64,000 nucleotides of DNA. Source: Patescibacteria group bacterium. Lineage in GTDB: Bacteria > Patescibacteriota > JAQUNI01. A model generated the notes under the pieces. The model was not told the DNA's origin and did no database searches. It was given only the letters and a program-made list of their open reading frames with translations. A program made the translations under genes and the position numbers. This document shows positions 3,335 to 63,110 of the stretch, piece by piece; the first letter of the stretch is position 1; each line of letters opens with the position of its first letter. The DNA lies in contig JAQUNI010000002.1 of assembly GCA_028717685.1 (NCBI GenBank), positions 7,903-71,902 of the forward strand, given 5' to 3'.

Positions 3335-3336
3335 GA

Positions 3337-3781
3337 AATGAAAAATGAAAAACTAAAAATGAAAAACGACAAAGAAAAATTTAAAAAGGAATTTAAAGCC
3401 AGAATCTACCACTTTATTTTGCGTTTAGTAAAATTTGTAGATAGCTTGCAAAAAGATAGAAGCTCGCAGGTTTTTGCTAATCAAATGCTTCGAAGCGGCA
3501 CAAGTATTGGCGCTAACTATATTGAAGCCCAAGCTTCAAGCTCTAAAAAAGATTTTGCTAATTTTTTCCACCATTCTTTAAAATCAGCCAACGAAACGAA
3601 GTTTTGGTTAGCATTATGCCGTGATTTAAACAAAGGAGAAAAAAGCCAAGCCGAATCTTTACTGCAAGAGCTTACAGAAATTGCCAATATTTTAGGCTCA
3701 AGCCTGCTTACCTTAAAAGGTAAGAAATGATTTTTTAATTTTAGATTGTGGTTTTTCATTTTTCATTTTCAGTTTTTCATT
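3337..3781. mobile_element. IVS-like cassette: a ~30-bp inverted-repeat pair (aaatgaaaaatgaaaaactaaaaatgaaaaac / gtttttcatttttcattttcagtttttcatt) enclosing the four-helix-bundle gene
   Basis: The left and right arms are reverse complements of each other. The same arm family occurs without cargo at 16395-16559, as a solo arm at 14998-15030, and at the nrdD disruption point (62012-62030). Confidence 0.55.
3338..3730 (+). CDS. Four-helix bundle protein (TIGR02436 / 23S rRNA intervening-sequence protein family)
   Basis: 130-aa ORF with the hallmark motif RSGTSIGANYIEAQASSSKKDFANF...ETKFWL. It lies inside an inverted-repeat cassette (3337-3368 / 3751-3781). The true start may be the internal Met at 3359, because the first codons fall in the left repeat arm. 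Confidence 0.8.
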   Translation: MKNEKLKMKNDKEKFKKEFKARIYHFILRLVKFVDSLQKDRSSQVFANQMLRSGTSIGANYIEAQASSSKKDFANFFHHSLKSANETKFWLALCRDLNKGEKSQAESLLQELTEIANILGSSLLTLKGKK

Positions 3782-8611: not shown

Positions 8612-11600
8612 ATGCTTTTTAAAAAGGCTCCTCCCAAGCCCAATTTTCCAGAGATGGAAAGAAAAATCTTGGAATATTGGGAGAAAAATAAAATTTTTGA
8701 AAAAAGTTTAAAGAAACCCTTATCCAAAGGTGATTTTGTGTTTTATGAAGGACCGCCAACAGCGAATGGTAAACCCGGCGTGCATCACGTTGAAGCGCGG
8801 GCGTTTAAAGATTTATTTCCTCGTTATAAGACTATGCAAGGTTACAGGGTGGAACGCAAAGCGGGCTGGGATACGCACGGCCTGCCTGTGGAATTGGAGG
8901 TGGAGAAGAGTTTAGGTTTTTCGGGAAAACGCGACATTGAAAAATATGGCATAGAAAAATTCAACAAAAAATGCGCGGCGTCAGTTTGGAAATATAAAGA
9001 AGAGTGGGAAAAATTAACCAAGCGAATGGGATATTGGGTTGATTTGGAACATCCTTATATTACTTGCTCTAATGAATACATTGAGTCGGTTTGGTTTATT
9101 TTGAAGAAGATTTGGGAGAAAGGGCTTTTGTATCAAGGTCACAAAGTCGTGCCTTATTGCCCAAGATGCGGAACAGCCTTGTCTTCGCACGAAGTAGCGC
9201 AGGGGTATAAAAAGGTAAAGGAGGCAAGTGTGTATGTTAAATTAAAAGTTAAAAGTCAAAAGTTAAAAGTCAAAAGTAAAAATCAAAATTCAGAAATAGG
9301 AGAAACCCCCCTAACCCCCCTTGTCAGGGGGGAAGGCAAGAATGTCTATTTTTTAGCGTGGACGACGACGCCGTGGACATTGCCGGGGAATGTGGCGCTG
9401 GCGCTGGGAGCGGAGATTGGTTATGTTTTAGTGAAGTCTGGAATTAAATTAAAAATTAAAAATGAAAAATTAAAAACCACAATCAAAAATGAAAAAATTA
9501 AAGTTGCTTCGCAACTTTTGAAGGAAAAAGAGGGATATTTAGTTTTAGCTAAAAAGAGGTTGGAAGTTTTGGATGGGGAATATGAGATTATTCAAGAATT
9601 CAAAGGCAAGGATTTAGCAGGGATTGAATATGAGCCCTTGTATCCGGTTTTTTCGGGAGTGGAAAATAGAAACGAAGAAACCCCCCCAACCCCCCTTGTC
9701 AGGGGGGCGAAGAAAGAAGAAAAAGAAAAAGCTTACCATACAGTTTTAGCCGATTTTGTGACTACGGAAGAGGGGACGGGGATTGTGCATACAGCGGTGA
9801 TGTATGGCGAGGATGATTACGCGTTAGGGGAAAAATTGGGTTTGCCGATGATGCATACGGTGGATTTGCAGGGGAGATTTAAACTCAAATCTCAAAACTC
9901 AAATCTCAAAACTACAACTCAAATTTCAAAATTTAAAGTTGCTTCGCAACTTTTAGATAAAATAGAAGGAAAATTTGTTAAGGACGCGGAGAAGGATATT
10001 GTTGAGGATTTGCGAAAAAGGGATTTGCTTTATAAATCTGAATTATACGAGCATGATTATCCCTTTTGCTGGCGGTGCAAAACACCTTTGCTTTACTACG
10101 CGAAAAAAAGCTGGTTTATCGCGATGAGTAAGCTGCGTGATAAATTAGTGGAAAATAATGAGAAGATAAACTGGATTCCGAAATATTTAAAAACTGGCCG
10201 TTTTGGCAAGTGGATTGCCGAGGCAAAGGAGTGGGCAGTATCGAGGGAGAGGTACTGGGGCACTCCGATGCCGATATGGATTTGCAAAAAATGCGGAGAG
10301 GTGAAGGTGATTGGGAGTAGGGAAGAATTTTATTCCGTCATTGCGAGCGGAGCGAAGCAATCGCCAGCAAGCAAAACCGAAGCTAGAAATGTCGGAACAT
10401 TGTCTTTACTAAATGGAGATTGCCGCGGTCGTCCCTCGACAGGCTCGGGATTCCCTCGCAATGACGACATTCTAATGGATTTACATCGTCCATATATTGA
10501 TGAGATTGTTCTTAAATGTAAGTGTGGTGGAGAAATGCGGCGGGTGCCGGAAGTTTTGGATTGCTGGTTTGATTCGGGGGCGATGCCATTCAGCCAAAAC
10601 CATTGGCCGTTTACTGACAGTTCCTCCCCTCTAAAGGGGAGGGCAGGAGAGGTTGTGAAGGGAGAGCCGAAACCCCCCCTAATCCCCCTTGTCAGGGGGG
10701 AGGGAAATCCTCCGAAATTATTTCCTGCCGATTTTATTTGTGAAGCCGTGGATCAAACAAGGGGCTGGTTTTACACGCTCCTCGCGATTTCCACACTTTT
10801 GGATTTTGGAGCGCCCTATAAAAATGTAATTTCCTTAGGCCACGTTTTGGATAAAAATGGCCAAAAAATGAGCAAATCTAGGGGAAATATTGTAGAGCCT
10901 TTCAAGGCTTTGGACGAATTTTCCGCTGATTCTATCCGCTGGTTTTTTTACACCGTAAATCGGCCGCAGGAATCTAAGAATTTTGACCCCGCGATCTTGC
11001 GCGACATTGTCTCGCGGTTTATTTTGACTTTATGGAATAGTTATTCTTTCTTTTTAACCTATGCGAGTATTGATCAACCCAAGCTTTCTAATGTCTTTGC
11101 GAGCGGAGCCCAAAAAGGCGGAGCGAAGCAATCTCTTCGCAATGACATTGCTGGAAACATTCTTGATCAATGGATTCTTTCTCGTTTAGCTGAATTGAAC
11201 AATAATATTGTTCAGTATCTCGATCGTTATGATGTCTTAAAAGCCGCGAAAGAAATTGAACAATTTGTTGATGATTTATCAAACTGGTATATCAGGCGGT
11301 CGCGCCGTAGATTTTGGAAAAGTGAAAATGATCAAGATAAAAACCAAGGATACAATACATTGCATTCTGTTTTAGTCTTACTATGCGAAATGTTGGCGCC
11401 TTTTATGCCTTTCCTAACGGAAAATATTTATCGTAATTTAACGGGCAAGGAGTCGGTCCATTTAGCCAAATTTCCCAAGATTTCATCCGAAGGAACTGAC
11501 CAAGGTATTTTGGAGCAGATGGATATTACGCGTAAGATTGTAACTTTAGGGCTGAATTTACGGGCGCAAGCAAAGATAAAGGTTCGGCAGCCGTTAGATA

Positions 11601-14994: not shown

Positions 14995-15093
14995 ATAAAA
15001 ATGAAAAATGAAAAACTAAAAATGAATAAGAGACAAGAAATACAAAATAAAAAATTTACTTTCTAAGTTTTTTGTGTTACGATAATAAAAAAT

Positions 15094-16365
15094 ATGGATA
15101 AAATAGATAAAATTGTCTCGTTAGCTAAGAGAAGGGGATTTATTTTTCAGTCTTCAGAAATTTATGGCGGCTTGGCAAATACTTGGGACTATGGTCCCTT
15201 AGGCGTTGAATTAGCCAATAATATCAAGCGGTTTTGGTGGAAACGGTTTGTTCAGGACCGAGAGGATGTTGTCGGCATTAGTTCGGCGATTTTAATGAAC
15301 CCGAAGGTTTGGCAGGTATCAGGCCATTTGAAAAATTTTACCGACCCATTGGTTGAGTGCAAGAAATGCCATCAGAGGTTTAGGGAAGACCAGATACCAT
15401 CAGATTCTCAAGCTGATAAATTTTGGGAATGTTCCAAGGGGGGAAAACATGAATTTGCCGAGGCGAGAAAGTTTAATTTAATGTTTAAAACCTTCGTGGG
15501 TCCGGTGGAGGACGCTAATTCCACGGTTTATCTTCGGCCTGAAACCGCCCAGGGAACGTTTGTTAATTTTGAGAATGTGCAAATAACGACGCGATTAAAA
15601 CTGCCTTTTGGCATTGCCCAGATAGGCAAAGCCTTCAGAAACGAGATAACTCCGGGCAATTTTATTTTTAGGGTTTTGGAATTTGAACAGATGGAAATAG
15701 AATATTTTATCAGGGAAGAGGACTGGCGAAAATATTTTGATTATTGGCAAGAGCAGATGCAACATTGGGTTTTGGACATCGGCATTAAAAAAGAAAATTT
15801 CGCGGTCCGAGAGCATGAAAAAAGCGAGTTGTCGCACTATTCCAAAAAAACCATTGATTTTGAATACAAATATCCTTTTGGCCAAAAAGAGCTTTATGGC
15901 TTGGCTTACCGCACCGATTTTGACTTGAGGGCACATAAATTATCTTACGAAGATATGATACCGCATGTTATTGAACCGAGTTTCGGTCTTGAAAGGACGA
16001 TTTTGGCTATTTTGTGCGACGGTTATCATGAAGATGAAGGCCGTATCGTTTTGCGATTAACCCCGGCGCTTGCGCCCTATAAAGCCGCGGTTTTCCCGCT
16101 TCTAGCAAACAAACCTGAGTTAGTTCAAAAGGCGAGAGAGATTTTCACGTTGCTTCAAGAGGAGTTTTCGACCGCTTGGGATTCGCGAGGCAACATTGGC
16201 AAGCGTTATTATTCGCAGGATGAAATTGGCACGCCTTTTTGCGTAACCATTGATTTTGAGACTTTGAAGGACAAAGCGATTACTGTGCGGGAGAGAGATA
16301 GTATGAAACAGGAGAGAGTGAAGATTAAAGAGTTAGAGGATTATATTCAAGATAAGATTAAGTGA
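15094..16365 (+). CDS. glyQS: Glycine--tRNA ligase (single-chain alpha2 type)
   Basis: N-terminus MDKIDKIVSLAKRRGFIFQSSEIYGGLANTWDYGPLGVELANNIKRFWW. Class II aaRS core. Confidence 0.9.
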   Translation: MDKIDKIVSLAKRRGFIFQSSEIYGGLANTWDYGPLGVELANNIKRFWWKRFVQDREDVVGISSAILMNPKVWQVSGHLKNFTDPLVECKKCHQRFREDQIPSDSQADKFWECSKGGKHEFAEARKFNLMFKTFVGPVEDANSTVYLRPETAQGTFVNFENVQITTRLKLPFGIAQIGKAFRNEITPGNFIFRVLEFEQMEIEYFIREEDWRKYFDYWQEQMQHWVLDIGIKKENFAVREHEKSELSHYSKKTIDFEYKYPFGQKELYGLAYRTDFDLRAHKLSYEDMIPHVIEPSFGLERTILAILCDGYHEDEGRIVLRLTPALAPYKAAVFPLLANKPELVQKAREIFTLLQEEFSTAWDSRGNIGKRYYSQDEIGTPFCVTIDFETLKDKAITVRERDSMKQERVKIKELEDYIQDKIK

Positions 16366-16394: not shown

Positions 16395-16559
16395 AAAAAT
16401 GAAAAGTGAAAAATGAAAAACCATAATCTAAAATTAAAAAATTTTAAAGAATACTTTTTTTATCAATTTTTACTGCTTTTAGATGGTAAGAACCTGGGGT
16501 TTAAATTCTTTTTAGATTTTTCATTGTGATTTTTCATTTTTCACTTTCAGTTTTTCATT
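16395..16559. repeat. Cargo-less copy of the four-helix-bundle cassette inverted repeats (MITE-like, 165 bp)
   Basis: Left arm aaaaatgaaaagtgaaaaatgaaaaacc, right arm gatttttcattgtgatttttcatttttcactttcagtttttcatt. No ORF between them. Confidence 0.55.
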
Positions 16560-23213: not shown

Positions 23214-25709
23214 ATGTATAATCACAAAGAAATAGAAAAAAAATGGCAAAAGAAATGGGAAAAAGATAGACTTTACAAATCCCAGGATTTTAGCGATAAA
23301 CCCAAATTTTATTGCTTGGATATGTTCCCCTATCCTTCGGGCGCGGGTCTGCACGTGGGGCACCCCGAGGGTTACACGGCAACAGACATTGTTTCCCGCT
23401 ACAAGCGGATGAATGGCTATAATGTCCTGCATCCGATGGGTTGGGACGCTTTCGGGTTACCCGCGGAAAATTACGCGATTAAGACTAAGGTTCACCCCGA
23501 TAAAAGCACGCACGAGAATATTAATCGTTTTCGGGAACAGATTCAGTCCTTAGGTTTATCTTACGACTGGGAACGGGAAGTGGACACTTCCAGCCCGGAA
23601 TATTACAAATGGACACAGTGGTTTTTCCTCTTTTTGTATAAAAACGGCTGGGCTTATCGCAAAAAAGCGCCGGTGAATTGGTGTCCTTCCTGCCAGACTG
23701 TGCTTGCGAATGAACAGGTGATTGATGGCGCGTGCGACCGTTGCAAAACTAAAGTTATTCAAAAAGAACTTAAACAGTGGTTTTTCAAGATTACCGATTT
23801 TGCCGAAGAATTAATCGCTGGTTTGGATAAAATTGACTGGCCAGAATCAACCAAAATTATGCAGAGGCATTGGATTGGAAAGAGCGAGGGGGCCGAAATA
23901 AAATTTTCAATTTTCAATTTTCAATTTTCAATTAGTGTTTTTACGACAAGACCGGATACAATTTTTGGGGCTACTTATTTGGTTTTGGCACCGGAACATA
24001 AAATTGTAGAAAAGTTAAAAGATAAAATTGAAAATTATGCAGAAATAGAGAAATATGTTTTGGCATCTAAGAAAAAAACGGAAAGGGAAAGATTAGCGCA
24101 AGAAAAGGAGAAGACAGGCGTGGAATTGAAAGGTATCAAAGCTATAAATCCGGCTAATAATCAAGAAATCCCCATTTTTATTGCAGATTATGTGCTCAAG
24201 GGTTATGGCACGGGTGCGATTATGGCGGTGCCAAAACATGATTTACGTGATTATTTATTTGCTCAAAAGTATAATTTACCAATAGTTGAGGTGATAAAAC
24301 TATGTGAAATTAAAAATGAAAAATTAAAAATTAAAAATCACAATTTAAAATTTAAAAATAATAGAGAGGAAGAATTAGTTTATGAAGATGAGGGGGTATT
24401 AGTTAACTCTGGCGAATTTAACGGGTTGGATTCGGAAGCAGCGAGGGAAAAAATCACCGAATGGCTAGCTACAAAGGGATTAGCCAAGAAAAAAATAAAT
24501 TACAAACTCCGTGATTGGCTGATTTCGCGGCAAAGATATTGGGGCGCGCCGATTCCTATATTTTATTGTGAAAAATGCGGCGAGGTGCCAGTATCAGAAG
24601 AAGATTTGCCGGTGTTATTGCCTCGCGATGTAGATTTTATGCCGCACGGAGAATCGCCGCTTACGCGCTCTAAGGAATTTCATAAAGTCAAATGCCCAAA
24701 ATGCGGGGGGAAGGCGCGGCGCGAATCAGATACTATGGATACCTTCGTCTGTTCTTCCTGGTATTTTTTTCGGTATTGCGATCCCAAAAATGCAGAAGAA
24801 TTTGCTTCCAAGAAACTTTTAAAATATTGGATGCCCGTTGATTTATATGTGGGCGGCGCGGAACATACGGTTCTGCATTTGCTATACTCCCGCTTTTTTA
24901 CCAAAGCCCTGCATAAAAAGGGCTTAATCAATTTTGACGAGCCTTTCTTAAAACTCCGTCACCAAGGAATGATTTTAGCCGAAGACGGTCGCAAGATGAG
25001 CAAGAGTTTAGGCAATGTGATTAATCCAGATGAGGTGGTAGAAAAGTATGGCGCCGACACAATGCGGATGTATGAGATGTTTATGGGACCGTTTGAAGAT
25101 TCTATCGCTTGGAACACCAAAGGGGTGATTGGAGTGCGAAGGTTTTTGGAAAAAGTGTGGAAGATAAAGTCAGGAATCAGGAACCAGGAATCAGGAACCA
25201 GGAATAATAAGCTAGATGGCTTGGTTCATAGAATAATTAAAAAGGTGGGTGTTGATATTGAGAACTTTAAGTTTAATACCGCGGTGGCGAGTTTAATGAT
25301 TTTGGTGAACCATATGGAAAGGGAAGAATTTATCCCCCAGCATTTATTTGAATCATTTTTAAAAATTTTATCGCCTTTCGCGCCACATTTGGCGGAAGAA
25401 TTATGGACACAGCTTGGATACAAAGTCGGAGATGCCGAAGGTAGTGGAACTGCTGACGAAGGAAGTAAGAGTATTTTTGTTGAAAAATGGCCAGAATATG
25501 ATTTGCGATTAGTGCAAGAGGACGAAGTGGACTTAGTGATTCAGGTGAATGGCAAGGTGCGGGCGGTCGTTCAGGTAAAGACGGATATTTCCGAAAGCGA
25601 AGCTAAAAAAATCGCTCTGAAACAGGAAAAAATTAAGAAATGGATAGGCGGCAAGAAAGTCCGCAAATTTATTTTCGTGCCAGGCAGGCTGATTAATATT
25701 GTTATTTAA
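23214..25709 (+). CDS. leuS: Leucine--tRNA ligase (bacterial type) with in-frame AT-repeat insertions
   Basis: FPYPSGAGLHVGHPEGYTATDIVSRY (HIGH), KMSKSLGNVINP, and a CxxC...CxxC zinc knuckle. Confidence 0.92.
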   Translation: MYNHKEIEKKWQKKWEKDRLYKSQDFSDKPKFYCLDMFPYPSGAGLHVGHPEGYTATDIVSRYKRMNGYNVLHPMGWDAFGLPAENYAIKTKVHPDKSTHENINRFREQIQSLGLSYDWEREVDTSSPEYYKWTQWFFLFLYKNGWAYRKKAPVNWCPSCQTVLANEQVIDGACDRCKTKVIQKELKQWFFKITDFAEELIAGLDKIDWPESTKIMQRHWIGKSEGAEIKFSIFNFQFSISVFTTRPDTIFGATYLVLAPEHKIVEKLKDKIENYAEIEKYVLASKKKTERERLAQEKEKTGVELKGIKAINPANNQEIPIFIADYVLKGYGTGAIMAVPKHDLRDYLFAQKYNLPIVEVIKLCEIKNEKLKIKNHNLKFKNNREEELVYEDEGVLVNSGEFNGLDSEAAREKITEWLATKGLAKKKINYKLRDWLISRQRYWGAPIPIFYCEKCGEVPVSEEDLPVLLPRDVDFMPHGESPLTRSKEFHKVKCPKCGGKARRESDTMDTFVCSSWYFFRYCDPKNAEEFASKKLLKYWMPVDLYVGGAEHTVLHLLYSRFFTKALHKKGLINFDEPFLKLRHQGMILAEDGRKMSKSLGNVINPDEVVEKYGADTMRMYEMFMGPFEDSIAWNTKGVIGVRRFLEKVWKIKSGIRNQESGTRNNKLDGLVHRIIKKVGVDIENFKFNTAVASLMILVNHMEREEFIPQHLFESFLKILSPFAPHLAEELWTQLGYKVGDAEGSGTADEGSKSIFVEKWPEYDLRLVQEDEVDLVIQVNGKVRAVVQVKTDISESEAKKIALKQEKIKKWIGGKKVRKFIFVPGRLINIVI

Positions 25710-59312: not shown

Positions 59313-59798
59313 ATGAGATGCCCACATTGCCATGCCAGCGAGACCAAAGTGCTGGATTCCAGGAGCGCGAACGATGGTTTTGTCATTCGGCGCCGCCGCG
59401 AATGCCCGAGATGCCGCTCCCGTTTTTCCACCTATGAAGAAGTGGAATTATTGAATTTTTATGTTATTAAAAAAGACGGTCGGCGCGAGCTCTATGACCG
59501 CACCAAATTAGAACGAGGTATCCGACGCGCTTGCGAAAAACGTCCTATTGCCGAGGAGACAATCTTGAAGATGCTTTCCCGCATTGAACAAAAGATTCGC
59601 GAGGACAGAAAAAGAGAAATAGGGAGCCGCTTAATTGGCGAGTTGGTGATGAAGGAATTAAAAAAGTTGGACGATGTAGCCTATATTCGTTTTGCCTCGG
59701 TCTATAAGTCTTTTAAAGATGTAGAAAGTTTCGCGCAAGAGCTAAGCGCGTTCACGGATCTCAAAAGACAGATTTGCCGTCCCCAAAAAGCCCCATAA
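59313..59798 (+). CDS. nrdR: Transcriptional repressor NrdR
   Basis: Zinc ribbon MRCPHCH...CPRC followed by an ATP-cone. Confidence 0.9.
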   Translation: MRCPHCHASETKVLDSRSANDGFVIRRRRECPRCRSRFSTYEEVELLNFYVIKKDGRRELYDRTKLERGIRRACEKRPIAEETILKMLSRIEQKIREDRKREIGSRLIGELVMKELKKLDDVAYIRFASVYKSFKDVESFAQELSAFTDLKRQICRPQKAP

Positions 59799-59997
59799 AA
59801 TCAAAAATTTTATGGGGGACCCCGAAATAAATAGAAATTAAAATTTAAAGGTTAGCCCGTCTATCAAAGCGGACACTTTTAAAAGGGTATTCGCTTACGA
59901 GCCCTGTCGCTCGAGAGCGACGGGACTCGAGAGCGACAGGGCGAGCGAGTAAAACCCTAAAGGGTTTCGTTCGCGAGCAAAACCCTAAATAATCAAA

Positions 59998-62025
59998 ATG
60001 GCAAAAACAAAACAGGTCAGAGAAATTAAGAAGCGGGATGGCAGGGTTGTCCCCTTTGAACCGGAAAAAGTCGCGACGGCTATTTTTAAGGCGGCGCAAG
60101 CGGTGGGAGGGCGAAATAGGGTGCTTGCTAGACAATTAGCCGCCAAGGTAGTTATCCTTTTAAATGAAAAATTTGATGGTCATACTATCCCATCCGTGGA
60201 ACAAATCCAAGATTTGGTGGAAAAGGTTTTGATTGAAGAAGGGCACGCGAAGACGGCGAAGGCCTATATTCTTTATCGCGATCAACACGCGCGGTTGCGG
60301 GATTTGCGGAAGTTCATTGATTCCGACGAACTAATGGAGGGCTATCTGTCACAGGTGGATTGGCGCGTCCGCGAAAACAGCAATATGACTTTTTCTTTGC
60401 AGGGGCTGAATAACCATGTCGCGTCCTCGGTTTCTTCCCATTATTGGTTGCACAAGATTTATCCTCCGGAAGTGCGGGACGCGCATCTAAATCGGGATTT
60501 CCATATCCATGATCTTCAGCTTTTATCCGCTTACTGCACGGGTTGGGATTTACGCGATCTTTTGATGCGCGGTTTTGGCGGGGTTTCCGGTAAGGTTGAA
60601 TCCCGCCCGCCCAAGCACTTGCGCACAGCCTTGGGCCAGATTGTCAATTTCTTTTATACCGTGCAGGGCGAAATCGCAGGGGCAGTGGCTTTCTCTAATT
60701 TTGATACTTATCTTGCCCCTTTTATCCACTATGATGATTTAAGTTATGGAGATATTAAACAGTGCCTGCAGGAATTTTTATTTAATATGAATGTGCCGAC
60801 GCGGGTAGGTTTTCAAACGCCTTTTACCAATATTACGCTAGATTTAACTGTTCCTAGTAATATTAAAAATGAACCCGTGGTAATTGGGGGAAAGCTTAAA
60901 GATGAAACCTACGGCCGATTTCAGAAGGAAATGGATCTTTTTAATCGTGCCTTTGGCGAAACTATGCTTGAAGGCGATGCTAAGGGACGTGTTTTTTCTT
61001 TTCCTATTCCCACGATTAACATCACCCGCGATTTTCGATGGGGGAAACGTGAATGGAATCCCTTGTGGGAAATGACCGCTAAATACGGCGTCCCATATTT
61101 TGCCAACTTTGTCAATTCTGATATGAGTCCGGATGACGCGCGCAGTATGTGTTGTCGTTTGCGCCTCGACAACCGAGAGCTTCGCAAGAGAGGCGGCGGA
61201 CTCTTTGGGGCGAACCCGCTGACTGGCTCTATCGGGGTAGTCACGATCAATATGCCGCGCTTGGGCTATCTAGCCAAAGACAAAGAAGATTTTTTTAAAC
61301 GTTTGGGAAAAATAATGGCGATTGCGCGCAAAAGCCTGCAGGTGAAAAGAGAGGCGTTAGAGCAATTTACCGAAGGAGGTCTTTATCCCTACTGCCGTCA
61401 TTACTTAGACAAGATTAAAGAATCTTTTGGCGAATACTGGCGCAATCATTTTAACACCATTGGTCTTTTGGGGATGAATGAAGCCTGCCTCAATCTTCTC
61501 AAAACGAACCTTTCTACAAAGAGGGGTCATAAATTTGCCAAGGAAACTTTAGTTTTTATGCGGGAAAGGATGATGGATTATCAGAACGAGGAGAATCAAT
61601 TATATAATTTGGAGGCGACGCCAGCCGAAGGCACAAGCTATAATTTCGCCAAATATGACAAAGAAAAATACCCTAAAATTATTGTGGCGAATGAAAAAGC
61701 TTATCAGGCAGGAGCAAAGCCGTATTACACGAATTCCACCCATCTTCCTGTTAACTTTAGTGATGATTTATTTGAAGCCTTGGACCGTCAGGACGACCTG
61801 CAGAGCCTTTACACGGGCGGTACGGTATTGCACGGTTTTATTGGCGAACGGCTGCCCAATATTACTGCCGTTAAAAGCTTAATTAAAAAGGTTTGCCACC
61901 GCTATCACCTTCCCTATTTTACCCTGACGCCGACCTTCAGCATCTGCCCCAAGCACGGTTATATCGCCGGCGAGCATGAATATTGTCCCAAGTGCGACGC
62001 GGAAATCGGTTACGCAGCCAAATGA
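59998..62025 (+). CDS. nrdD: Anaerobic ribonucleoside-triphosphate reductase NrdD, truncated 8 aa after the C-terminal zinc-binding CxxC pair; lacks the glycyl-radical motif
   Basis: ATP-cone N-terminus (VVPFEPEKVATAIFKA), class III RNR core, and ...CPKHGYIAGEHEYCPKCDAEIGYAAK*. The stop lies inside the repeat motif aaatgaaaagtgaaaaatg. Confidence 0.85.
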   Translation: MAKTKQVREIKKRDGRVVPFEPEKVATAIFKAAQAVGGRNRVLARQLAAKVVILLNEKFDGHTIPSVEQIQDLVEKVLIEEGHAKTAKAYILYRDQHARLRDLRKFIDSDELMEGYLSQVDWRVRENSNMTFSLQGLNNHVASSVSSHYWLHKIYPPEVRDAHLNRDFHIHDLQLLSAYCTGWDLRDLLMRGFGGVSGKVESRPPKHLRTALGQIVNFFYTVQGEIAGAVAFSNFDTYLAPFIHYDDLSYGDIKQCLQEFLFNMNVPTRVGFQTPFTNITLDLTVPSNIKNEPVVIGGKLKDETYGRFQKEMDLFNRAFGETMLEGDAKGRVFSFPIPTINITRDFRWGKREWNPLWEMTAKYGVPYFANFVNSDMSPDDARSMCCRLRLDNRELRKRGGGLFGANPLTGSIGVVTINMPRLGYLAKDKEDFFKRLGKIMAIARKSLQVKREALEQFTEGGLYPYCRHYLDKIKESFGEYWRNHFNTIGLLGMNEACLNLLKTNLSTKRGHKFAKETLVFMRERMMDYQNEENQLYNLEATPAEGTSYNFAKYDKEKYPKIIVANEKAYQAGAKPYYTNSTHLPVNFSDDLFEALDRQDDLQSLYTGGTVLHGFIGERLPNITAVKSLIKKVCHRYHLPYFTLTPTFSICPKHGYIAGEHEYCPKCDAEIGYAAK

Positions 62026-62198
62026 AAAGTGAAAAATGTCAGCCCTAGATCGTTCAGACTGTTCAGGTTCTGAAAAGCTTTTAGGCTCTGAATGAACTCT
62101 GATGAGTCTTCAGACTCGAAGAGCTGGTCCGCTCTTCAGGCGGAAAGATGAAAAACGATAATTAAAAATAAAAAAATAATTTTAAGGAGGAAGATAGA

Positions 62199-62354
62199 AT
62201 GAAAAACACAATACAAAATTTAGAATCACAACGAACGCGATGTGAAGTTTATTCGCGTGTTGTTGGTTATTTGCGGCCGGTGAAACAGTGGAATGACGGG
62301 AAGCAGGAGGAGTTTCATGATCGGAAGGAATATAATAAGGCATTAGGGAAATAA
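62199..62354 (+). CDS. Separately encoded NrdD C-terminal glycyl-radical domain (51 aa)
   Basis: MKNTIQNLESQRTRCEVYSRVVGYLRPVKQWNDGKQEEFHDRKEY carries the class III RNR glycyl-radical signature (RVVGY...W..GK..E...R). It has its own SD ttaaggagg 8 nt upstream. It is out of frame with the upstream fragment (173-nt gap). Confidence 0.7.
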   Translation: MKNTIQNLESQRTRCEVYSRVVGYLRPVKQWNDGKQEEFHDRKEYNKALGK

Positions 62355-62408
62355 TCAGTAATTGGTAATTGGGGCAACTCGCCTTTCGGGTGAGAATATT
62401 ATTATTTT

Positions 62409-63110
62409 ATGCAAATCCGCGGTTTTCAGAAATTTTCTCTTCTCGATTACCCGGGAAAGATTGCGGCGATTATTTTCACATCAGGCTGCACCCTCCGGTG
62501 CCCTTTTTGTTATAATCCTGAATTAGTGAGAGGCGACTCCCGCTTGCCCGTTTTTACCGAGACGGAAGTGTTAAAGTTTTTGGGCAAAAGAAAAGGCAAA
62601 TTGGAAGCATTGGTAATTACCGGCGGCGAGCCGACCCTGCAGGCGGATTTGCCTCGTTTTATTTCGCGAGTGAAGGATTTAGGTTACCTGGTTAAATTAG
62701 ATACTAATGGTTCCAACCCTGCGATGTTAAAGAAGTTGATTCAAAAAAAATTTGTGGATTACGCGGCGATGGATTTAAAAACCAGCTGGCAGGATTATTC
62801 AAAGGTGCAGCCAGCTGTAGAGCTTGCGCGGATCAAAGAGAGCGTAATTTTTTTGCTCAAAGCGAAAAAGCCAGATGGGTTCCATTATGAATTTCGGACC
62901 ACTCTTTTCCCGCCTCTTGTGCGCAAGGATAATTTGGAGGAAATGGTCAAGATTATCGTCGGCGCGGAAAAATACGCGCTCCAGCAATATCAGCCCCTCA
63001 AAACATTGGCGCCCGATCCGGAGAGAAAAGTTTATAGGGAGAGCGTGATCCAAGGATTCAGAAAGATAGCGGAGAAGTATGTGAGGAAAGTGGAAATTAG
63101 AGGAGTTTAA
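62409..63110 (+). CDS. nrdG: Anaerobic ribonucleotide reductase activating protein (radical SAM)
   Basis: CTLRCPFC (CxxxCxxC) at the N-terminus. ~230 aa. Immediately downstream of nrdD. Confidence 0.8.
   Translation: MQIRGFQKFSLLDYPGKIAAIIFTSGCTLRCPFCYNPELVRGDSRLPVFTETEVLKFLGKRKGKLEALVITGGEPTLQADLPRFISRVKDLGYLVKLDTNGSNPAMLKKLIQKKFVDYAAMDLKTSWQDYSKVQPAVELARIKESVIFLLKAKKPDGFHYEFRTTLFPPLVRKDNLEEMVKIIVGAEKYALQQYQPLKTLAPDPERKVYRESVIQGFRKIAEKYVRKVEIRGV

Follow-up and report, generated by a model that had tools for sequence, protein, structure and literature searches.

The nrdD locus of a Patescibacteria group bacterium (GTDB lineage Bacteria; Patescibacteriota; JAQUNI01) raises the question of how a class III ribonucleotide reductase (RNR) could be made from a gene that stops before its radical glycine. 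The locus was studied in a stretch of 64,000 nucleotides (nt), referred to here as the window (assembly GCA_028717685.1, contig JAQUNI010000002.1, positions 7,903 to 71,902 of the forward strand); coordinates are those of the window, and the genes, gene segments and signals of the cluster are all on its plus strand. The large open reading frame (ORF1, 59998-62025, 675 amino acids (aa)) encodes an ATP-cone, a catalytic barrel and a Zn ribbon, and is devoid of a glycyl-radical loop. After a spacer of 173 nt with stops in all three frames (62026-62198), a second frame of 51 aa is found (ORF2, 62199-62354), composed of a variable leader (residues 1-11) and a conserved core (R12-R42) that includes RVVGY. 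The activase gene nrdG (62409-63110) adjoins the split nrdD. The explanation that we hold to be clearly the most probable is a naturally split class III RNR encoded by an nrdR-nrdD(large)-nrdD(small)-nrdG cluster, in which the radical glycine is located on a subunit of ~6 kDa that would be activated by NrdG.

Both pieces were compared with the family profiles, and ORF1 was found to be NrdD on every one of them, scoring 1035 bits against NF006126 (cutoff 548) and 515 bits against TIGR02487 (cutoff 326); models of B12-RNR match it at the shared ATP-cone only (aa 10-98, 60025-60291; PF03477, E=1.2e-23). It covers positions 1-528 of 562 in PF13597 and 2-548 of 581 in TIGR02487, without the glycyl-radical segment, and aligns with the NrdD of Prevotella copri up to residue ~704, the CPKCGS of the Zn site. 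Of the features of a class III NrdD, ORF1 has the barrel with its finger-loop cysteine, a score above the curated cutoff and the Zn site; the RVxGY motif is absent in cis and is carried by ORF2. The finger-loop pair Cys385-Cys386, the presumed site of the thiyl radical, is read directly from the TGT TGT codons at 61150-61155, within DARSMCCRLRLDN. Direct reading also gives the Zn-ribbon ligand block C650-x2-H653 ... C663-x2-C666 (61945-61995), which is conserved in all homologues and for which metal binding is predicted. The C-terminus of ORF1 (...CPKCDAEIGYAAK*) lies 9 residues past the last Zn-ribbon cysteine. An earlier, sequence-only reading of this DNA had placed the end of the large ORF shortly after the second Zn CxxC pair and without a radical motif, which proved correct, except that it gave the distance as 8 residues.

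ORF2, which is in a different frame (+2) from ORF1, matches the missing segment only (PF13597 positions 531-562, E=2.8e-11; TIGR02487 positions 549-580, E=3.2e-11). On three independent NrdD profiles the two ORFs abut with no overlap and no gap beyond 2 positions, the junction being situated ~7 codons ahead of the ORF1 stop and ~12 codons inside ORF2. The 51-codon ORF 173 nt downstream is, as had been proposed, exactly the missing radical module, and these matches bear out the similarity to NrdD C-termini on which the sequence-only reading had staked its case. The predicted glycyl-radical site is Gly23 (codon 62265-62267), the invariant glycine of SRVVGY, which corresponds to the radical glycine in fused NrdDs. 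When ORF2 was compared with Pfam at E<=1, the family returned was PF13597 (NRDD) and not PF01228, and a PDB search with ORF2 alone gave no match at E<=0.01, the query being too short. Neither Pfam nor NCBIfam holds a family dedicated to this mini-ORF, and source annotations name it either 'hypothetical' or by the name of the full enzyme.

The sequence data show two separately initiated ORFs, a start codon and a ribosome-binding site belonging to each. The Shine-Dalgarno sequence AAGGAGG noted earlier ahead of the small ORF is present at 62184-62190, 8 nt upstream of the ATG; it is conserved in the relative L003 and weaker in L001, and behind it the ORF2 leader is conserved as protein. No terminator-like site was found in the 173-nt spacer. 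Both nrdD pieces are under strong purifying selection: the ratio of nonsynonymous to synonymous substitution rates (dN/dS) of ORF2 was 0.18, 0.036 and 0.037 in the three pairwise comparisons of the window, L001 and L003, and that of the last 250 codons of ORF1 was 0.02-0.06, with dS reaching ~2.5. All of the 43 split-type large subunits compared have the finger loop DARSMCCRLRLDN unchanged, and the mini-ORF has 14 invariant positions among 34 homologues, Gly23 being one of them. At its far end (62336-62354, compared with L001:4141-4189) the small ORF terminates in ...NKALGK* in the window and in ...NKALDPSSLAKGEGLEK* in its closest relatives, owing to an in-frame deletion of 33 nt in the window; the far C-terminal tail therefore appears dispensable.

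The same arrangement was sought in related genomes, as had been suggested, and was found to be widespread. A search with ORF2 yielded 549 mini-ORF clusters, of which the best 120 are all stand-alone, 41-73 aa in length, and from Patescibacteria and DPANN archaea. Among the 120 large-subunit clusters nearest to ORF1, annotated as Parcubacteria, Doudnabacteria, Falkowbacteria, Uhrbacteria, Buchananbacteria and Kuenenbacteria, 117 are without the radical motif (65-97% identity). The layout recurs in independent assemblies from NCBI, ENA, JGI and Logan, and the synteny FtsZ-NrdR-NrdD-miniORF-NrdG-dUTPase is identical in the close relatives L001-L006; in the window too, a dUTPase gene follows nrdG. 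Because selection acts on both pieces and the split is conserved so widely, the locus is not explicable as a pseudogene, as the product of a recent insertion or as a misassembly. The recent inactivating insertion and the assembly artefact, which the sequence-only reading had kept as alternatives, are refuted by these comparative data, and its suggestion of an enzyme made of two polypeptides is supported by the purifying selection on ORF2 and by the conserved arrangement. Judged from these comparisons, assembly from two polypeptides is the most likely state of the enzyme.

Where in the protein does the break fall? Split large subunits end in a tail of the form CPxC-D-x-E-[I/M]-G-Y, succeeded by a short unconstrained extension; this motif was seen in ~115 of the 117 split neighbours, with 4-36 aa after the CxxC (median 18). 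In the window the tail reads DAEIGYAAK (61996-62022), in which D-x-E-[IM]-G-Y marks the split clade and the residues beyond it are unconstrained. The mini-ORFs consist of a variable leader and then (K/Q)-R-(T/Q)-x-C-E-V-Y-S-R-V-V-G-Y, and fused relatives with a long linker display CPxC-xxEG-KxTx-CEVYSRVVGY, as in L009 with CPQCQQEGKRTKCEIYSRVVGY. This fused pattern places the split halfway along the linker that joins the Zn site to the radical loop; the alignments to the intact NrdDs of P. copri and L009 agree with the earlier placement of the break in the linker after the Zn ribbon. The glycyl radical domain of NrdD is highly mobile and takes in Gly711 and the C-terminal tail (PMC11226230). 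A break in the linker therefore divides the radical domain itself: the large subunit keeps the Zn ribbon, and the radical loop and the surface tail constitute the small one. In fused enzymes this C-terminal segment crosses over the top of the barrel. The tail beyond EIGY is evolving neutrally. The TGA stop of the window (62023-62025) is replaced in the 97%-identical P0121 by a Cys codon, and the protein there runs 16 residues further; the tail of P0121 (...EIGYGVKCKMKNVSPRSFRPFRF) is translated through the repeat arm described below and into the hairpin region. The 'EIGY' of the large tail was also considered as a vestigial radical motif, an idea which arose from a MAFFT misalignment that set the VGY of the small ORF under the IGY of the large tail. 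Compared with fused forms such as CPQCQQEG-KRTK-CEIYSR, fission within the linker fits better, and the vestige is left as an unproven aside.

The sequence-only reading had ascribed the split to a small mobile repeat. The gap does begin with a recurrent repeat arm, the 19-nt, A-rich, heptamer-periodic AAATGAAAAGTGAAAAATG (62020-62038, assigned to no strand), which overlaps the last codons and the stop of ORF1; an exact second copy is present at 16397-16415, and 17 matches with up to 3 mismatches were found in the window versus 0.2 expected. It is followed by a hairpin-rich insert of ~104 nt (62039-62142, likewise strandless), which contains the hairpin GAAGAGC-N6-GCTCTTC (arms 62118-62124 and 62131-62137) and the duplicated TTCAGACT (62053 and 62109); the hairpin and the twofold ttcagact reported earlier were thus confirmed. 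This core has no second copy within the window. To its right, the A-rich 62143-62177 matches 16408-16442 at 86%. The RNA of the gap was folded, as had been proposed, and was not unusually structured, its minimum free energy being equal to that of shuffled sequence (z-score 0.01). A-rich heptamer-periodic motifs, of the form of AAATGAAAAGTGAAAAATG or variants of it, recur in intergenic DNA elsewhere in the window (3336-3768, 9446-9471, 14999-15024, 23908-23933, 24307-24332, 43701 and 59213), and those at 16397 and 16528 (16397-16553) form an inverted pair ~130 nt apart, just after a gene ending at 16365. These motifs may represent a small repeat element or a regulatory motif.

That a recent insertion of such a mobile repeat broke an intact nrdD, leaving a pseudogene or a gene that was only just rescued, would accord with a gap that opens on a motif recurrent in intergenic regions, and with a hairpin-rich segment of ~104 nt that looks inserted in an A-rich spacer; something small may indeed have been inserted into the nrdD spacer of the window. 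This account of the split is nonetheless extremely unlikely. The gap measures 58 nt in L003-L006 and 125 nt in L001/L002, and among these the coding flanks align and the gap interiors are unrelated; L003 is split with neither arm nor hairpins, and the split therefore predates the insert. More than 100 diverged relatives are split as well, both ORFs are under strong purifying selection at a dS near saturation, P0121 translates the arm as part of its tail, and the hairpin core is single-copy in the window. The repeat and hairpin DNA is therefore later filler in an unconstrained zone of spacer and tail, a consequence of the split and not its cause. An artefact of assembly or sequencing, such as a false indel or a chimeric join, has a negligible probability: the window is probably a metagenome assembly, and the repeats and hairpins in the gap can trouble assemblers, but the architecture recurs in many independent assemblies and samples, and the large ORFs of relatives share the conserved tail motif.

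The two ORFs might also be rejoined into one chain by a self-splicing intron, by bypass or frameshifting, by recoding of the stop, or by protein trans-splicing. The phage T4 nrdD carries a group I intron; in the window, the position of the profile junction is compatible with removal of an intron of ~230 nt, and the ORF1-frame stops through the gap are all TGA. We consider rejoining very unlikely. No Rfam match was obtained over the whole window at the gathering threshold, or over 61700-62500 at E<=10, and the folding energy of the gap does not exceed that of shuffles. Relatives have gaps of 58 or 5 nt, or else their two ORFs overlap (-4 to -29 nt); the gap sequences are unrelated and all relative frames occur, and with such variation no ribozyme, bypass signal or frameshift site could persist. 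With regard to recoding, TGA is an ordinary stop here, found at the end of 9 of 48 long ORFs; table 11 gives a coding density of ~90%, and readthrough of the TGA would terminate at a TAG at 62221, in the wrong frame. For trans-splicing, a 9-residue tail and a leader of ~11-14 residues fall far short of the length of split-intein halves, and a domain of that kind was not found in either. A hammerhead-like 'ctgatgag...gaa' in the gap was considered as a ribozyme and rejected, given the empty Rfam result and the shuffle-like folding. A further alternative is that the mini-ORF serves as a spare part or regulator for an intact NrdD encoded elsewhere, the truncated protein having lost catalysis or using another radical source. 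Stand-alone radical proteins of NrdD type do exist, both beside complete NrdDs (L071, L075, L076) and as orphans (L067 and others), and only 64 kb of the genome are visible. This alternative is nevertheless unlikely, as the large subunit retains an invariant finger loop under strong purifying selection, the mini-ORF of this clade always adjoins the truncated large gene and the activase, and it does not possess the half Zn ribbon found in the spare-part-like proteins.

Those spare-part-like proteins are of two kinds. In the Minisyncoccales/Paceibacterota loci L071 (1497-4660), L075 and L076, an extra ORF of ~80-92 aa lies 1-24 nt past the end of a complete NrdD (PF13597 1-562); it consists of a half Zn ribbon (FKCNECF) and a radical loop, and the activase comes next. 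Within a genome, the radical segments in cis and in trans are 100% identical as protein over 31-34 residues, and their DNA is identical at 86/93, 93/102 and 92/93 positions, all differences being synonymous; between those genomes the DNA identity of the radical segment is 61-80/99. Identity within and divergence between genomes indicate concerted evolution under purifying selection, as expected of a true spare part, and on these comparisons class III RNR would have, in the extra ORF of Minisyncoccales, a candidate spare part resembling GrcA. Orphans of a related family, 100-145 aa in length and not beside nrdD, were also observed in Desulfobacterales-type and delta-proteobacterial metagenome-assembled genomes (MAGs) (L067:3261-3611, L029, L045, L051, L058, L061 and L080). 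They display 'KCDACF...L.NYQ.CEVYSRVVGY', an NrdD-type radical domain (PF13597 positions 521-562), and in L067 the gene is located between those for DUF2400 and fumarase. No NrdD Zn-ribbon signature was found upstream at the seven orphan loci within the fetched stretch.

For the two-chain enzyme of the window we propose the following mechanism. The genes for the large and small NrdD and for NrdG would be co-transcribed; NrdG would abstract a hydrogen from Gly23 of the small subunit, and the radical loop would dock non-covalently in the barrel beside Cys385/386 and start catalysis. We infer this action in trans from the homology to fused NrdDs, from the loading of free YfiD/GrcA by the activase of pyruvate formate-lyase (PFL), and from the mobility of the NrdD radical domain. 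The PFL activating enzyme acts on YfiD/GrcA, so an activase can load a free radical domain (PMC13450708; PMC8683613). Where a complete NrdD and an extra radical-domain ORF occur together, the identity of the two radical segments shows that the one in trans is maintained to suit the large subunit. A radical glycine is the point at which oxygen breaks the protein backbone. A possible benefit of the split is that oxygen damage would cost a 6-kDa peptide and not an 80-kDa enzyme; just as possibly, the split originated in reduced genomes by neutral fission of the gene. More tentatively, and with rather less than even confidence, the 51-aa protein may be regarded as a freely exchangeable 'radical cartridge', loaded by NrdG as a free peptide, plugged into the large subunit, and swapped after oxygen damage.

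Several points weigh against the reading of a split enzyme that functions in two chains. It does not account for the strong conservation of the DxE[IM]GY tail, and assembly and activation in trans are deduced from sequence and by analogy. An AlphaFold2 model of the concatenated pieces, built with an unpaired alignment, had a mean predicted local distance difference test score (pLDDT) of 73.9, falling below 50 at residues 644-726, which comprise the Zn ribbon and the small subunit, and the model therefore says nothing on docking. The neighbour-joining trees from which multiple origins of the split are read (see below) are rough, and are complicated by inteins.

The distribution of the split was surveyed over 80 species-representative loci. 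It was present in 32, as 28 adjacent pairs of large and mini-ORF and 4 loci with the activase gene between the pieces. The gaps at split loci range from -29 nt (overlap) to +187 nt, are of unrelated sequence, and occur in all three relative frames; the mini-ORFs have their own Shine-Dalgarno sequences and start codons, including TTG starts behind an AAGGAGG inside the large ORF. By neighbour-joining, the window belongs to a large, coherent split clade of Patescibacteria, at the base of which are the fused P0135, P0151 and P0214 and a fused Minisyncoccales/Nealsonbacteria group. Other split lineages are nested among fused ones: a Thermoplasmatales MAG (L025) beside fused Thermoplasmata, Micrarchaeota (L010, L050) beside fused Bathyarchaeia, and further Thermotogae/Acetothermia, Hippea, and Halanaerobiales, Bacillota and Pyramidobacter. 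Linker fission appears, from these approximate trees, to have arisen several times (Candidate Phyla Radiation (CPR), DPANN, Thermotogae/Acetothermia, Halanaerobiales). In Patescibacteria the split appears to be old and clade-wide, and in other lineages independent. Recurrent fission at the same linker suggests that the site is structurally permissive and that the two-chain state is viable.

The lineages outside Patescibacteria show features of their own. In L055 (18-3647), and also in L047, L078 and L036 (Halanaerobiales, Bacillota, Pyramidobacter), the order is large NrdD, NrdG, mini-ORF; the L055 mini-ORF is of 46 aa, its large subunit contains an intein, and loci of this layout carry the motif VGYLSP or VGFLTP. 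This layout looks like an independent fission, and the lineages concerned include cultured members. In Thermotogae/Acetothermia (L081:3400-3470, L085:3400-3470, and also L073), a TTG start lies 8 nt past an AAGGAGG, the overlap with the large ORF is ~30 nt, and alanine replaces the otherwise invariant cysteine before EVYSR. In a Hippea MAG (L063:1-700) the large tail (KLEEIESEIQRLKRQLELEMENG...) and the small leader (TRDEILKRIEELEKAKKEIKG) are both heptad- or coiled-coil-like, and could constitute a docking zipper between the chains. Many NrdD large ORFs are of 950-1210 aa, compared to the usual ~680-720 aa (L001:867-3875, P0125, P0126, P0130, L011, L022, L046, L072 and L079), and Pfam flagged the intein splicing domain PF14890 in P0126 and L055; inteins therefore seem to be frequent in the nrdD genes of these lineages, that of the close relative L001 among them. 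A tblastn search of phage genomes with ORF2 gave only 3 matches, of which two fall under genes annotated as NrdD and the third in a record without annotation; none offered a tractable phage example.

How does the split NrdD compare with known systems? Single-chain class III RNRs (the NrdDs of phage T4, Thermotoga maritima and P. copri; PDB 1H7A, 4U3E/4COI and 8P23) match the same family profiles and share the ATP-cone, barrel, finger-loop cysteine, Zn ribbon, RVVGY and an adjacent radical-SAM activase; in these the radical glycine is in the same chain, ~7-16 residues past the Zn site, whereas in the window a stop, a spacer and a new start intervene. To our knowledge, the radical glycine of characterised glycyl radical enzymes is in the active-site chain, with the exception of GrcA/YfiD and of Y06I of phage T4. 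These PFL proteins resemble ORF2 in being small, stand-alone carriers of a radical motif that are presumably loaded by an activase and complete a large protein in trans. GrcA, however, is homologous to the C-terminus of PFL (PF01228), while ORF2 matches NrdD only; GrcA coexists with a full-length PFL and repairs oxygen cleavage, while the large subunit of the window is without a radical loop of its own, so that the enzyme could not do without its small protein. GrcA, of 14.3 kDa, combines a disordered N-terminal domain with an entire radical domain (PMC8683613); ORF2, in comparison, has 51 aa and is without the Zn-ribbon part of the domain.

Among divided RNRs, the nearest precedent is the class II NrdJa/NrdJb of Pseudomonas aeruginosa, a catalytic protein naturally encoded in two genes, the second chain of which bears the C-terminal Zn finger and a Cys pair (PMC9669993). 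It differs in being B12-dependent, in its break point, in its much larger second chain, and in that this chain delivers reducing equivalents and not the initiating radical. The likeness to class I RNR is conceptual and without homology: its beta subunit is a ferritin-like metalloprotein that acts by long-range proton-coupled electron transfer, whereas the radical loop of the window enzyme would insert directly into the barrel. Class I RNR keeps a stable radical on a smaller subunit of its own, from which it is passed to the large subunit's catalytic cysteine. Phage RNR genes with introns or homing endonucleases, such as T4 nrdD and Aeh1 nrdA, are also in pieces in the DNA; nrdA of Aeromonas phage Aeh1 is split by mobE, and its two polypeptides assemble. 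In contrast, the gap of the window contains neither intron RNA nor an endonuclease gene, and the split is cellular, ancient and clade-wide. A literature search returned no description of a split NrdD or of an RNR spare part, the closest results concerning the spare parts of PFL and the divided NrdJ of class II. A review of June 2026 lists spare-part radical modules for formate lyases only and leaves open whether they exist for other members of the family (PMC13450708), which agrees with the earlier statement that no trans-acting glycyl-radical module is known for class III RNR. The split NrdD is well supported as a genomic fact, its mechanism being inferred.

The cluster opens with nrdR (59313-59798), encoding the NrdR repressor with a Zn ribbon and an ATP-cone (PF22811, PF03477), and nrdG, at its other end, encodes a radical-SAM activating enzyme (TIGR02495 NrdG2, 190.5 bits, cutoff 131; PF04055, PF13353). 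Between nrdR and nrdD (59895-59990), an 11-nt perfect inverted repeat (CCCTGTCGCTC ... GAGCGACAGGG) with nested CTCGAGAGCGAC repeats is followed by a AAACCCTAAAGGGTTT palindrome and then by a second AAACCCTAAA; these intergenic inverted repeats could be an operator or a structured leader.

If the radical cartridge proves true, this would be the first glycyl radical enzyme with its radical glycine natively on a separate subunit, following a two-subunit logic akin to that of class I RNR. Together with the extra ORFs of Minisyncoccales, it would mean that spare parts exist outside the formate lyases, and that obligate small subunits may derive from them. An obligate two-chain class III RNR would be a natural experiment on how an activase recognizes its glycine, on how the radical domain enters and exits the barrel, and on the cost of oxygen damage; the three-gene system is small, simple and directly testable by co-expression. 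The split arrangement is found in hundreds of ultra-small bacteria and archaea, and the split NrdD would be the main, possibly the sole, source of deoxynucleotides for a large share of CPR bacteria and DPANN archaea. Given this role of an essential enzyme, annotation of the mini-ORF as 'hypothetical', or of the large gene as 'partial', would misdescribe the RNR on which these organisms may depend.

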